Virus record (IMG/VR): IMGVR_UViG_3300037311_000136
Location: 1-53,939 of that record
Reading direction: 5' to 3' (one strand)
Length of the DNA: 53,939 bases
Source: a virus
Lineage: Duplodnaviria > Caudoviricetes
The position numbers were made by a program. Below, piece by piece: positions 6,001 to 53,939 of this stretch (its first letter is position 1; each line of letters starts with the position of its first letter).

Positions 6001-9000
6001 CGATGCGCTGATGTTTATGGTACGGGACGAGGACGTGCCGCGTGCACTTGAGTTGCTTCGTGCGCCATTCCACGATAGGTTCTATCGGATTATAAATCCG
6101 GATGGCCAAAGCCTGTGTCTTCCAAAGTGGGAGCCGGCCGCTGTCAAGACCTGGGCCGAAGACAAAGAAGAAGAACCCGGAAGTGTACAGGCGTTTCGGG
6201 ACTTGTACTTACGAAAAACGAGGAAGGCATGACTACCATTCGCTTTAGTTTGCAGCCGGTATTAGACGGACGTATCCGCAACAGCAGACTTGCTGACGTG
6301 TGTCAACACATGCTTAAACTTGCGGAAGGATTACGCTACGTCGAGCTATTTGCGGATGATACCTGCGGTATTCGGTTCGCAGGTAAGTACTCCGTCATTA
6401 CCTGGGTTCCCAGAAGCACGGCGGACTTTACTGCGTTTAATAAGCTGCGCGAATACCTGGAGCAGGGCCCAGAAGCGGCCAACACTAACGTACCCGTAGC
6501 TTTTTTGGAGGATGTAGAAGATGACGAAATCTTTGAACAAAAGCGAAGAACCAAAAAGAAGCCACCAGACTCCGGGAAAATTGCGCACTGATTTAACTAC
6601 GCGTTTCTACCTTGCGCAGTTGTCCGAGCTGTATACAATGCAGCGCCATGCGCGGGCGACACCCACACTAACCAAAGAACTGCCTTATATTGAAAGACGT
6701 ATTGAGGCGGTGAAAGAAACACTACAACATCTCTCGAAGCCCGGGACAGTGAGAAATGGAAAAAAGTAAACGCCGCAAGCAAACTAAGCACTCGAATACC
6801 CGCGATGTTTTACTTGCCGCGGCAAGCGCGTACAGGCAGTTACTTGAAACTGGGCGCGTGGTCTGTATTGACCCGTCCTCGGGCTCGCAGTCTTCGCAGC
6901 CGGGGTTTGCTTTATTTGCCGCGGGAATACTTCAGGCCTCGGGAACACTAAAGGTTACTCCGGACTATGCGCCGAGCCGTAGATACCGGCAGCTTCTTGC
7001 CGGAGTTGTAGAGCTGCGTGACAAGTTCCAGCCGGACGTTCTTATCATAGAAAAGCTGCCGCTGTTTATGGGCTCGGGTGGACGAATGTTTAATCAGCAA
7101 GGAGTTGTAAACCTGCACCGAAGTGTTGGCGTCATTATGGCGGGCATGGACTGCGAACGTGTTCTAGAAGTTTCCCCGGCAACTTGGCATACTTACCTAC
7201 GCAATCTTGGAAAAGAGGCACTCTACCGGAAGACAGATTCTAATGACGCTATAGTACTTGGCTTGACAGTATTTGCAAAGCTGGGTATTACAGTCAAGGA
7301 GGTTGCGGGACTATATAAAACCCCGGCCGAAACAGTAACTGCACCATTTAGAAGAGGAGTAAAGAAATGAAAAGCGTCAAGTTATCGGTACTTAATAATG
7401 GGTTTGTAGTAGAGGCGGGCGACGGCTCTTGGCACCACGCCGATATTAACTCCGCTATCAATGTTGTACTTAAAGAACTGGGTTTTACTGTCCCCGAAGT
7501 AGTGTTGTGTGGTAAGGCGGAAGTACAAAAACTTGCCGACAAGGTGGCGGCGTGCGAGGCCAAAGAATGTCAGCCAGTACCCGCTACGGAAGTGCCGGCT
7601 GCCGAGTAAGTTAAGTATCTAGGAGCGTTGTCATGTGGTTTCAGTTTTTTGTGGAGTCGCTTAGGCAAGGCTGCATTTTTACGTGCACGATATTTGGTTC
7701 TATTATTGGCCACATCGGCGAACCCTCTATTCAAGACTTTATTCGGGTAGACGAGGCCACCTTGTACACTCGCGAGTTTTACGCCGAGTGCGCCGAGCGT
7801 AAAATTGACCGCTGTCTTCTTGGCAACAATTACTACCGCGGGTTTATCTTTACAAGCGGCGTACAAGAGGAAGCAATTGCAGTTTGCCGGTACTTCAGGA
7901 TGGGACTGGCAGACACGATTAAGCCCCTTACTGTCGTGGCATTTGTCCGCGCCGAGTGGGATATGCTTGCGCCAATTCAGCGTAAAGCACTCGTGTTCCA
8001 CGAGCTGGGGCATTGTATCTTGAACCTAGCCCACACTCCCGATAGCACGCCGCAGCTGCGGGAGCAGTACCGCGGCCACATAATGAACTCGCATATGGCG
8101 TCGGTGCGGGAGCTTATGAACTGGAATTACAGGGTAAATGAGCTATTCGCCTACAAAGTTCGCTGGCTTAATTTCCTAGAGGAAGACTACCTGCAGAATA
8201 AGTGACTCAAGATTTTTCTTCCGCGTGCCGATACGAATAGAGCATCCAAACCTACATGCGGAGGAATGCTACTATGCGGCCCGACAGCAAAGAAGCATTT
8301 GACTTACATCGCGATATCCATCAGGTAATCGAAGGCACCCCAGTTAAACTGCGTATTGAGTATTACCAGAACCTTTTATATATTCCTGAAGATAAGAATA
8401 ATCCAATTGCCGTAGCAAATTTGGAACAAGTATACTATGCCGTCGAGGTTCTTGAACAAAGACGCGAGAGTATACTTAACGACATGTCCGGCGATGACTG
8501 GCCCCCATTTTAACTAACTTATTAGGAGTAGGTAACATGAGCAAAAAGTATGAACTATTAGAGTGGGACGAACAAACTAAAGTTAGCGGCGAAGAAAAAA
8601 CGCCGACACCTGTGTCAGCGGGTTCTACAAAGCACGACGATAAGAAACCGCGGCCCGAGCTAATTCCCGCTGACGTGCTTGTTAAAGTTGCCGAAGTACT
8701 GGCAGATGGCGCACGGCGCTATGGTGCGCGGAATTGGTCGGAAGGCGGCGGGTTTCAGTGGAGTCGGCTGCAAGGTGCGACAATGCGGCACCTACTTAAG
8801 TTTGCTTCCGGAGTTGATAAAGACCCGGACTCAGGCCTTGACCATCTGGCGCACGGCATTTGCTCCCTCATGTTTCTATACGCGCACCAACTTCGTAATC
8901 TCGGCACGGACGATAGGGATAAAACCGAACGCAAAATCGAGGATTAAGTATGGCCTTCCCAACTATGATTAGTCAGCCCATCCCCGGCGGCCGACTTTCC

Positions 9001-51000: not shown

Positions 51001-53939
51001 TGTATTTGGTAACGCGCGAGTGTGTGGCAATGCAAAAGTATCAGAAAATGAAGATGTATTTAACAACGAGACAGAAAGGATAGGATAGCATGGACACATT
51101 ACAAATGCGGCTTGCGCACGCCGGCCAGATGATGGATAGGGACGTGGTGCTGGACACACTGAACGTGGATGATTTGACTTGGGCTTTATGCTTTGTCGAA
51201 AGTGTGGCTCCTGAGGTTAGTTTGCAGCTGAGCAAACCCTACCTGCACTCGTCCGAGTTTATGTGTGAAACCTACGGCGACTTGCTGGACGCTATGGAGT
51301 TTGCGGCCATGGAGCAGCTTAAAACAATTCGGGTATCTATATACTCGGAGTTTGAACGGGGGGAAATCTAGCCATGCTATACAGCGAACGCCTCTATCGT
51401 GTCGACGGCCCGGACGGCGTGCAGCATATCGACTTGCTCGGCGAGCTGCCCGTTATTGTAAACAACATGCAATTTGTCATGCATGCCTGGCATGTCACAT
51501 TCCTCGACGGGACGCAGATACTTGTCCATGCCCGCGTGTCCCCCTTTGAAAACCTCATGGACTTGGTGGCCAGACGGGCAGATGCCACACTTCTCGCGCA
51601 AGTAGTTGAACGCGCGCTCGGCTATCGCGACGAACTACTACTCAACAGTCCCAATGTTGCGGACTTCGGTGTGTATCATGAGAGGCGTCGTCTCGAAGCC
51701 GCGCGTGGTAAAGAACGGCCGAGTACTTCAGGCAGCTACGACGAGCGTATACAAGAAGCAAAACGCCGAATTGAGGCGGCCAATGCAGCTGCCCGGCGGG
51801 AGCATAACGAACGCATATCTAAAACCTACGGCCTCAAAAAGCCGGTGGCCGAGCGCTGGAAGGACGCGCAGCTGCCCGGCCGGGGAGCGCCGCCAGCACC
51901 CAATCCGTTAGGCGGTTCAAATAAAGGGGACGACGATGCAAACAAAGACTGAGCCTGTACTGGTATTCCGATACTTTGTAGACGGTTCAACCGGGCTATG
52001 GTCTGGTGTTATCTACCTAGCGCCGCGAGTCGCGGGGTTTGTAGTTACGGGCTGCGCAACACAGCAGGAAGCTGCGGAAAGGCTTCAAGAAAAGTTGAAC
52101 CTCTACATTTTCGGCGGGGAGTTTGGCAATGCAGTTGGATAGCAAGGCACCTACAACTGTCCAGATTTTTGACAGTTCTGAGGCACGTGTCAAAAGTTTG
52201 GGCAGTCGGGGTGTTGAAAGTTTAAACAACTTCCTGCAAAATTTGGCGGGGAGAGGTGAAACTGGTTTTTCAGTAGCCGTTCCGGCCGCGCAAATCAAGC
52301 TGTCTCAATTACTTAGGTTCACCGCAATTGGCTTTGTAATAGTTCTGCAGTTTGTACAACTAAAGTTATTTGCGCTACTTTCCGAAGCGTTCTATGCACA
52401 AAACGAAAAGTAAAATGCGAAAACAGTGGGAGTCAAAAATGAAACGCGCCATTACCCAGTTCACCGTGAAAAAACCACCTATCCCGGCCCGAGCGCCCGG
52501 CCCCGCAGCGAAGATAGCCAACGCCGAGCTGCTCAAACTCAACCTTGAGTTGCGCGCGCTTGGGCTGCATGTGCAATGGGACGCCGTCAACAATGTAAAC
52601 TACGTAATGCTTCCCGCGGGCGGTATCCGCGTTATCTCGACACTTGAAGAGGGTATTCGGTTCAAGGGCCTCTGGGACGAGGAGTTTGCGGATGTTGGGG
52701 AGGATAAGTAACATGACGGCCACAAGGCGTTCATACAAACACGGTACTACATTGAGGCCGGGCACTGCAATTATGCGCTGGGCCACGGCGTACTTGGAGC
52801 TCGCCTCCGGGGTAAATGGCGGCCCCCGCATTACCCGTTCCGAAGCGTCCCTGCGGCTTGCCGAGATACTGGGCCTCGATGAGTTTACAGTCGCCCAGAT
52901 TCGCGGGAACAATCGCGCGTGGGCCTATACATTTGACGGCGACGTGCCGAAGCTGCAGGTTCACATGCCCGAGCTTACGGATGGAGTTATAGAAGAGCTC
53001 GAAGAGTTGGTTACCTGGGACGAGCTGGCTGAAGATATTATGCCGGGTTCTCCAAAGGCCGGCCAGAGTGTGGCCGCACTTGGGCTGTCCGGCTGGCTTC
53101 CCGCCGAAGCGGACGACTCGGACGGCGCGTTACTTGAGCTTGCGCTGGCCGCGGAGTCGGCGGCCGTAGATGAGTCCCGTTCCCGCAAGTGTATGTCCTG
53201 CGCCAAGCCATTCAAGTCCTTTCACGGCGGCCACCGTGTATGCGACACCTGCAAAAAAAGCTGGCGCGCAATCGGCCCGCGTCTCGGCGAAAGTGGTTCC
53301 GACTGGGAGTTGTCCGGCGACTGATTGCCTTTCAACCCTTTCACTGTCCCCGATTCCCTCCGCCTATTTTATTCCCCGCGCGAAAGTTTTTTCGTTTTGT
53401 ATATAAATACGAGGAGCCGAAAGGCGACGAAGTATTTATATTTATTGCGTCCGCTATATTGCGGGCGCCTCACAACTGCGGCAGGATACTTCGCGGCGTC
53501 TATGCATTCGTATGAAATGGCCACTGTAATGAACGTTGTTCACGAAGTGAACTCTTCTCGTTGCGCTTGTTTCATTGCGTATGTATTTAGGCTTCGCGTT
53601 TGCCCCAAGCGTTCGCATTGGCGCTGCATCGAAACCGGCTACACGAACCCGCATTGAATGGGGACAGTGATAACATGACTAAGCATTGGTTCGTTGCGCC
53701 GCTTTCTTCGCTAAGCAGGGGCAAACGCAAGCCCTTACTGCTCCCCCGCTCCGCTTCACACTCCGCAATAACTCGGGTTATTTCACTTCGTCGCGTCACT
53801 CCGTTCAACAACCCTCGTCATTGCGTTCGTGTTCAGCTTCGCTGCCCCCTCAGCAATTCCTCATACGGAATAGCATATTTTTTACGGCTTGTCAAACTTT
53901 TAAAAATATATTTTATTTTCCAAAGATATTGCCGACTTG

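Follow-up and report, generated by a model that had tools for sequence, protein, structure and literature searches.

Genome-wide sequence signals in phages

Few genome-wide signals are known in phages, i.e., host Chi, nick sites and stoperators, and the word described here, the nonamer GGGGACAGT, departs in one or more defining features from every known kind with which it was compared. It was found in the virus record IMGVR_UViG_3300037311_000136 of IMG/VR (Duplodnaviria; Caudoviricetes), a single contig that was analysed over its whole length of 53,939 bp and is called the window in the following. Stoperators of the cluster A mycobacteriophage L5 are mostly intergenic, oriented with transcription and bound by the repressor gp71. 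They resemble the window word in that asymmetric sites, tens of them, are scattered over a phage genome of some 50 kb for a phage protein to read; unlike these intergenic, transcription-oriented sites, the copies in the window are intragenic and indifferent to transcription. In competent hosts, a share of the copies of an uptake sequence forms inverted pairs behind genes. The DNA uptake sequence (DUS) of Neisseriaceae and the uptake signal sequence (USS) of Pasteurellaceae resemble the window word as non-palindromic 9-12-mers which are strand-balanced, genic, read in several frames and placed at tolerant residues, but they belong to competent bacteria and reach about 1 copy per kb, whereas the window phage has 1 per 4 kb and no hairpin pairs.

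For phages enriched in host Chi, 23 copies were reported in E. coli phage LLS and 32 in Pseudomonas phage MD8, whereby 20 of the 23 and all 32 copies share one orientation and cluster near one end, and LLS, other lambdoid phages and MD8 are described as being without recombination genes (PMC12315714). The word in these phages is short, G-rich and asymmetric, occurs in tens of copies in a genome of 30-60 kb, far above chance, as does the window word, and is described there as read directionally by a DNA-end-processing enzyme (PMC12315714). The Chi sequences quoted are G-rich (PMC12315714; bioRxiv 10.1101/2020.08.13.249359) and 5-8 nt long (bioRxiv 10.1101/2020.08.13.249359). Site-specific nicks provide a further precedent, as phage tf carries 14 nicks in 46 kb at the 9-bp consensus TACT/RTGMC (11 exact, 3 variant) with just 17 sites within one mismatch of it (PMC3517423). 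A strict consensus of about 9 bp, some 14 copies per ~46 kb and almost no near-misses connect the nick sites of tf, T5 and phiKMV with the window word; unlike the latter, these sites all lie on one strand, which in tf is the top strand only (PMC3517423).

A strict and over-represented word

Thirteen exact copies of GGGGACAGT are present in the window, seven on the plus and six on the minus strand, and by raw count the word and its sub-words rank as the commonest 8-, 9-, 10- and 11-mers of the genome. The preliminary description, made from the sequence by eye, had counted 14 exact copies; the coordinates of 13 stand, whereas at 23127, where a minus-strand copy was supposed, the sequence is ACTGTCCCT, in which the outer G is mismatched and only the 8-mer core GGGACAGT is left. 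The core was found at 6743, 26014, 28035 and 28267 as described. Expected are 0.23 copies, and the largest number seen in 100 dinucleotide shuffles was 2 (0 of 100 reached 13); the order-3 Markov model gives an expectation of 0.41. Shuffling synonymous codons within each of 58 genes yielded a mean of 1.58 copies (maximum 5), and permuting the codons within genes a mean of 1.26 (maximum 3), whereby both means include about one copy lying in unshuffled parts and 0 of 300 shuffles of either kind reached 13. The word is thus a clear outlier under k-mer counts against Markov and codon-shuffled nulls, a check proposed beforehand, with 0 of 600 codon-preserving shuffles reaching its count. A literature search with the 9-mer as query returned only primer matches in macrophage papers.

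If an A to G exchange at word position 5 is allowed for, the sites can be summarised as GGGRCAGT, which occurs 26 times; the full form of the word is t-GGGG-R-CAGT-R-a. The copies were already noted as strand-balanced, mostly genic and read in several frames, and this holds for all 26 sites, each of which lies in an open reading frame (ORF), one of these ORFs being doubtful. The sites are as follows, with the residues read at the exact copies.

7487-7495, minus: exact GGGGACAGT, antisense in ORF 7367-7609, TVP
9099-9107, plus: exact, sense in ORF 8950-9297, GTV
11828-11836, minus: exact, antisense at the 3' end of ORF 11315-11857, TVP
12489-12497, plus: exact, sense in ORF 12433-12924, GTV
15631-15639, minus: exact, sense in ORF 13958-17365, RGQY
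20105-20113, plus: exact, antisense in ORF 19849-20211, SLSP
30048-30056, minus: exact, sense in the 1810-aa ORF 24992-30424, GTV
32881-32889, plus: exact, antisense in ORF 32775-37181, ALSP
37369-37377, plus: exact, antisense in ORF 37228-37524, TVP
41668-41676, plus: exact, antisense in ORF 40530-41699, SLSP
42515-42523, minus: exact, sense in the portal gene 41773-43779, GTV
53343-53351, minus: exact, antisense in ORF 53325-53657, TVP
53660-53668, plus: exact, in the doubtful open-ended ORF 53600-53938
6743-6750, plus: core GGGACAGT only, first G missing
23127-23134, minus: core only
26014-26021, plus: core only
28035-28042, minus: core only
28267-28274, plus: core only
9975-9982, minus: variant GGGGCAGT, A to G at word position 5
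13646-13653, minus: variant GGGGCAGT
16890-16897, minus: variant GGGGCAGT
22117-22124, plus: variant GGGGCAGT
29835-29842, plus: variant GGGGCAGT
35987-35994, plus: variant GGGGCAGT
44339-44346, plus: variant GGGGCAGT, in the large terminase gene
47666-47673, plus: variant GGGGCAGT, in the AEP-like gene

With 6 G of 9 the word is G-rich; nine positions are strictly specified, and there are flank preferences beyond them. Its one-mismatch neighbours, all 27 taken together, amount to 18 copies where 10.5 are expected, against 13 exact ones, and the excess is confined to A5 to G (5 copies) and G1 to C (3 copies). The base 5' of the word is T in 6 of the 13 copies, the base 3' of it G or A in 12, and the one thereafter A in 9; five copies extend to GGGGACAGTGA, and eight run on as GTG (5 GTGA, 2 GTGG, 1 GTGC). 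Past a few bases the flanks are unconserved, and the word is therefore not part of a longer repeat. The 127-bp terminal repeat of the record holds no copy, and the nearest copies of opposite orientation are 317 bp apart.

Codon choice and protein sequence at the word

With respect to transcription, six of the exact copies are sense and seven antisense. The GGGRCAGT sites read as follows.

sense, G-T/A-V: 8 sites
sense, RGQY: 1 site
sense, GDS: 1 site
antisense, T-V/A-P: 8 sites
antisense, L-S/P-P: 8 sites

The tripeptides concerned are encoded by the word far more often than codon usage accounts for, as 7 of 16 GTV are encoded as GGGACAGTN (expected share 4.7%), 4 of 6 TVP as ACTGTCCCC (0.9%) and 3 of 6 LSP as CTGTCCCCN (2.9%), and the GTV tripeptide is itself enriched (16 against 6.8 expected, p 0.003). 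Where word sites can be aligned to relatives, other residues stand there, with a single exception among all aligned triplets; at the portal site 42515 the relatives read TAM, QSA, SAL, PAV and PEM instead of GTV. Since the codons are nearly saturated, several frames and both strands are involved and the residues are unconserved, the word is a selected DNA-level signal which has shaped codon choice and, at tolerant places, the protein sequence. The earlier proposal of such a signal, for which codon bias would not suffice, is hence upheld by the shuffles, the frames, the tripeptide use and the residues of the relatives. That a strict 9-mer is kept against codon usage and even against protein sequence speaks for a genome-wide reading of phage DNA and points to some enzyme or protein that reads this DNA at the copies of the word.

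Spacing of the two orientations

With all copies pooled the spacing is indistinguishable from random and no clustering is seen. Taken by orientation, the gaps are more even, with a coefficient of variation (CV) of 0.46 for the plus copies (p 0.038) and of 0.44 for the minus copies (p 0.047). The word of a relative, G005, which is described below, gave 0.56 (p 0.15) for plus and 0.53 (p 0.036) for minus, and the Fisher combined p for same-orientation evenness in the window and G005 is 0.003 in a test that was post hoc. For GGGRCAGT in the window, the plus sites (n=15) have a CV of 0.51 with p 0.005, and the minus sites (n=11) p 0.33. Alternation of orientation along the genome was not significant in runs tests (p ~0.12-0.14 each). 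These values suggest that each orientation forms its own series, i.e., that the word is read directionally.

Relatives and their words

The nearest homologue of the large terminase (TerL) is 55% identical and lies on a 61,270-bp Logan contig. A single-protein TerL scan of IMG/VR found no relative, and an alignment-based scan of the same resource turned up 121, from which 80 loci were retained; the relatives compared are distant, with TerL 36-46% identical. The comparison took in seven further members of the family with whole or nearly whole genomes (G001-G006 and G147); five of them, G001-G005, share synteny with the window, their proteins being 21-50% identical. The preliminary description had named a lack of enrichment in related genomes as a ground for refutation, and formally such a lack was seen for GGGGACAGT: the word stands at chance level, with 6 copies in 911,294 bp (80 loci) and one copy in total in five whole relatives.

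In G005 (58,295 bp, 41% GC) a different word, GGGGGCGAT, recurs 16 times (6 plus, 10 minus), where 0.14 copies are expected. It is likewise G-rich, has the consensus t-GGGGGCGAT-a with unconserved flanks, and only 3 one-mismatch neighbours occur. No comparable word was found in G001-G004, G006 or G147, so that a strong strand-balanced word is present in 2 of the 8 whole genomes; the top k-mers of the word-less genomes derive from coding tandem repeats, ribosome-binding sites, poly-C tracts, one-strand promoter-like words and an apparent Gly-Gly coding bias. As G005, one of these distant relatives, uses another word that is built alike, the lack of enrichment of GGGGACAGT in the relatives shows lineage specificity rather than chance, and the differing words fit a reader that is host-dependent or fast-evolving. 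Among 43 partial loci searched for words of their own, only L028 (ACGGGGTAT, 5 copies) and L075 (CGGAGAATA, 6 copies) pass Bonferroni correction. As a control of power, 10-20-kb pieces of the window itself reached Bonferroni p of only 0.015 to above 1; since they mostly fail their own test, the partial loci say little.

A template GGGG-RC-RR-T shared across the family was considered and dismissed, as it has 0-1 matches in G006, G009 and G010. No accessory gene common to the window and G005 and absent from G001-G004 was found besides one 39-residue match (tblastn; HNH protein, PF01844; Pfam on 20 G005 proteins). Tandem arrays of 12-bp repeats in G005 that contain GGGRCAGTG (1.7-5.5 kb) were first taken as the same signal and turned out to be small genes encoding tetrapeptide repeats of the form x-D/G-S-V. 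Other IMG/VR contigs carry this repeat with identical codons and have the 9-mer nowhere outside the arrays; that the window and the G005 arrays share the 9-mer is probably coincidental. In G005 five such arrays surround a DUF6745 gene at 3446-4438 (L095 1700-5520), with the fixed caps MSSRMGSV... and ...SVNTED, and tetrapeptide repeats of this type also occur in L101, L103 and L105.

Other repeated words of these genomes are of different kinds. G005 (L095-L097) has the 8-mer GGGGTGAT in 20 copies, mostly sense and several directly before start codons, which resembles a long Shine-Dalgarno sequence. In G006 (L124-L126), GCTAACTTAA and ACTTAAGTGG occur in 7 copies each, nearly all on one strand, and may be a phage-specific promoter or regulatory site. 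Long poly-C/poly-G tracts characterise G004 (L091-L094), with 24 windows of C10 against 0.13 expected.

A possible Chi-like signal

The account that we favour, though with low confidence, is that the word acts like Chi, as a directional signal, in a genome that would be circularly permuted. A helicase-nuclease entering at DNA ends would meet the word and read it in one direction, whereby the encounter would switch the enzyme from degradation to recombination; the reader might be a host enzyme of the RecBCD/AddAB type or the Cas4-like nuclease of the phage together with its DinG-like helicase. Were the genome headful-packaged and circularly permuted, its ends could lie anywhere, so that an oriented copy would be needed near every possible end and in both directions. 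The phage lineage would then have put the word in both orientations, roughly evenly in each, wherever its proteins tolerate it. The genome encodes the following recognisable functions.

937-2016: PD-(D/E)XK nuclease
2710-5091: family A DNA polymerase
6756-7370: RuvC-like resolvase
8537-8947: N-domain of a MazZ-like dATP/dGTP diphosphohydrolase (PF18909, E 2e-27)
9858-11315: DinG-like helicase
12921-13418, minus: lysozyme
41773-43779, minus: P22/SU10-like portal
44236-45672, minus: TerL with T4-type N-domain

Bases 1-127 are repeated exactly and directly as 53813-53939, an overlap which assemblers leave on a circular or circularly permuted genome, giving a unique length of 53,812 bp. A terminal repeat of the same length, 127 bp, is also found in G002, G005 and G147, and it is therefore probably an assembler k-mer overlap and not the biological ends. 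The genome appears complete, is podovirus-like and 53.9 kb long; despite the terminal repeat, the CheckV completeness is given as 45 for this record. The P22-like portal, the T4-type N-domain of TerL and the 127-bp end overlap would fit a complete genome and perhaps headful packaging.

Several points weigh against the word being a Chi-like signal. Chi-enriched phages, as portrayed in the literature (PMC12315714), have their copies in one orientation and clustered at an end, whereas the window word is balanced at 7:6 and shows no clustering; they are without Rec genes, whereas the window has the PD-(D/E)XK nuclease, the RuvC-like resolvase and the DinG-like helicase. By the same account their Chi is the known 8-mer of the host, and the Chi sequences quoted in bioRxiv 10.1101/2020.08.13.249359 measure 5-8 nt where the window word measures 9-11 nt. 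Nuclease and helicase genes are present in all six genomes compared and a word in only two of them, so that a phage-encoded reader from this core set is not favoured. In 133 prokaryote genomes (2 metagenome-assembled genomes (MAGs) in which contigs of relatives are found, and 131 genomes of one phylum), which were not chosen as likely hosts, the word is at control level and 0 of 133 are enriched. The test of even spacing was devised after seeing the data, and its single p-values are just 0.04-0.15. Finally, we infer the direction of reading, the identity of the reader and the permutation of the genome, the last from features of the sequence.

As for the host itself, TerL relatives were found in three MAGs of three different phyla, which is probably the result of mis-binning. 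A Shine-Dalgarno-like sequence precedes 34 of the 58 window genes, a usage that argues against a Bacteroidota host. If the word were a host Chi or uptake word, the hosts of this family of uncultured freshwater phages could also be predicted from it.

A possible phage-encoded reader and its word

The word may also be one half of a fast-evolving, phage-autonomous reader-word pair, an idea we hold tentatively. A phage-encoded enzyme (primase, nickase or helicase-nuclease) would need an exact mark of 9-11 bp, which would have forced evenly spaced copies onto each strand, even where amino acids had to change for it, and relatives would have switched to other marks, such as GGGGGCGAT in G005. If true, this would amount to a so far undescribed system by which tailed phages 'punctuate' their whole genome. 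With their two words of the same build, the window and G005 offer a natural route to the reader through an exchange of words or genes between them, and the pair makes the role of nick-site-like or Chi-like words in phages testable. Candidate readers, assigned as such by inference, are the following.

47205-48293, minus: AEP-type primase-like N-domain and winged helix, 362 aa
48357-49100, minus: HNH or restriction-endonuclease-like protein, 247 aa
4997-5623, plus: HNH endonuclease in the split PolA gene (phrog_374, E 4.9e-22)

The protein of 47205-48293 has no Pfam or PHROG match, and Foldseek against the PDB gave nothing at E <= 0.001. Its AlphaFold2 model (pLDDT 81) was compared by VIA-align, whereby residues 1-174 matched the LigD polymerase domain (Z 7.4, 151 aligned residues) and Prim-PolC (Z 7.0), and residues 187-291 the winged helix of CodY (Z 8.8); Atlas leads to the AEP type as well. 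D67, D69, H144 and D147 are invariant in 10 sequences, and we take D67/D69, H144 and D147 to be the DxD, H and D motifs of AEP enzymes. This is moderate evidence, drawn from a predicted structure, for an AEP primase fused to a winged helix. The 48357-49100 protein likewise matched neither Pfam nor PHROG and resembles, with an Atlas feature score of 0.95, viral clusters that bear the name restriction endonuclease or HNH. None of the three proteins has a homologue in G001-G005, and neither the 47205-48293 nor the 48357-49100 protein co-occurs with such a word across the relatives.

Primase, binding, nicking and uptake as alternatives

It appears rather unlikely that the AEP-like primase starts or loads at the copies, which would then be needed at regular intervals on either strand for the lagging strand to be synthesised. 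The predicted AEP-like fold with its invariant residues and the even spacing on each strand would fit, as would the GTG continuation of 8 of the 13 copies: known AEP prim-pols read template words, NrS-1 prim-pol using TTTGGTTA and GTG(A/G) and pRN1 ORF904 being cited there as well for a recognition site (PMC8718748). By the same account, however, known primase sites are of 3-8 nt and flexible rather than a strict 9-mer (PMC8718748), and the plus and minus copies in the window are interleaved, with no strand switch at an origin. The distribution in relatives speaks against this role too: G005 has a word and no AEP-like homologue, and the whole genome G147 has an AEP-like homologue and no comparable word, its top 8-mer CGGTGGAG (11 copies with 50 one-mismatch neighbours) reflecting an apparent Gly-Gly coding bias. 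Across the relatives no association between the AEP gene and a word was seen, a weak comparison as only 2 whole genomes carry the gene; in 14 loci of relatives with an AEP homologue no significant word was found, GACAGTG occurring there 1.98 against 1.44 times per 10 kb, at low power.

The AEP-like gene in L076, L064, L065, L067, L052, L054, L055 and L079 contains a conserved ...CAGTAAG(C/T)AA-GACAGTG-ACTTACTACCAG..., which forms a short inverted repeat around GACAGTG.

Less probable still is that a DNA-binding protein of the phage recognises the copies as dispersed sites and would thereby organise, silence or mark the genome. A copy number of 13-26 in 54 kb, the asymmetry and the sharp specificity of the word are what such sites would have, the genome encodes at least one predicted winged-helix protein, and a relative with a different word is what a co-evolving pair of protein and site predicts. 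However, all 26 sites are in ORFs and the exact copies are divided into 6 sense and 7 antisense, unlike the stoperators of L5, and binding as such does not predict that each orientation is evenly spaced on its own. Moreover, no repressor or integrase was seen among the 40 window proteins scanned against Pfam.

Nicking at the word by a phage nickase, as in T5, phiKMV and tf, with the HNH-like products of 4997-5623 and 48357-49100 as candidate enzymes, seems improbable. Copy number and sharpness are much like those described for phage tf, and the two HNH-like genes of the window are absent from G001-G005. Against this, the nick sites of tf, T5 and the phiKMV group are all on one strand (PMC3517423), where the window has 7 to 6, and G005 has its word without a homologue of either HNH-like gene and without a PF01844 match.

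Very unlikely is a host-derived drive or mimicry, by which the word would be hyper-abundant in the host, for instance as a DNA uptake sequence. Strand balance, several frames and variable residues are hallmarks of uptake sequences, and the words differ between related phages; yet a phage of lytic appearance gains nothing obvious from it, its DNA would not be expected to be under uptake drive, no hairpin-forming inverted pairs exist (opposite copies being at least the 317 bp apart given above), and the prokaryote genomes searched, which were not chosen as likely hosts, gave none enriched. Chance, codon usage or a repeated protein motif, for which the dominance of three frames (GTV, TVP/TAP, LSP/LPP) might be quoted, has practically no probability left, as 0 of 100 dinucleotide and 0 of 600 codon shuffles reach 13 and the copies occupy both strands and four frames with unconserved flanks: chance or coding bias is excluded.

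Further observations on the genome

The genes of the window lie on the plus strand as far as ~13.9 kb, then on the minus strand until ~49.1 kb, after which they return to the plus strand. No annealing protein was recognised among the 40 window proteins scanned against Pfam. Megablast against 50,697 phage records gave no match to the window, and the best tblastn match of the portal is 20.7% identical, no cultured phage being close. In a freshwater metagenome, the only public run in which this DNA occurs and perhaps its source, one contig of 53,842 bp covers the window stretch, without variants.

The family A DNA polymerase gene, which is one continuous gene in G001-G003, is split in the window into an N-part (2710-5091) and a C-part (5690-6232). 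The HNH endonuclease ORF 4997-5623 (phrog_374) sits between the two parts, and judged from this arrangement it looks like a homing-endonuclease insertion. The MazZ-like domain at 8537-8947 is common to G001-G004 and hints at a modified purine in the phage DNA; no adenylosuccinate-synthetase-like (PurZ) match was seen among the proteins scanned. A YdcK-type beta-solenoid protein (50582-51088) contains an 18-bp tandem repeat at 50741-50846 and is 50% identical to the product of a G001 gene, which has an 18-bp array of its own that is the source of the top k-mers of G001. The 13-mer CAAGTGCGGTTGT occurs three times on the plus strand (21938, 28046 and 35316), antisense in three large genes of the virion module; it contains nine letters which we take to be the USS core of Haemophilus, and is probably a shared peptide motif or a coincidence.

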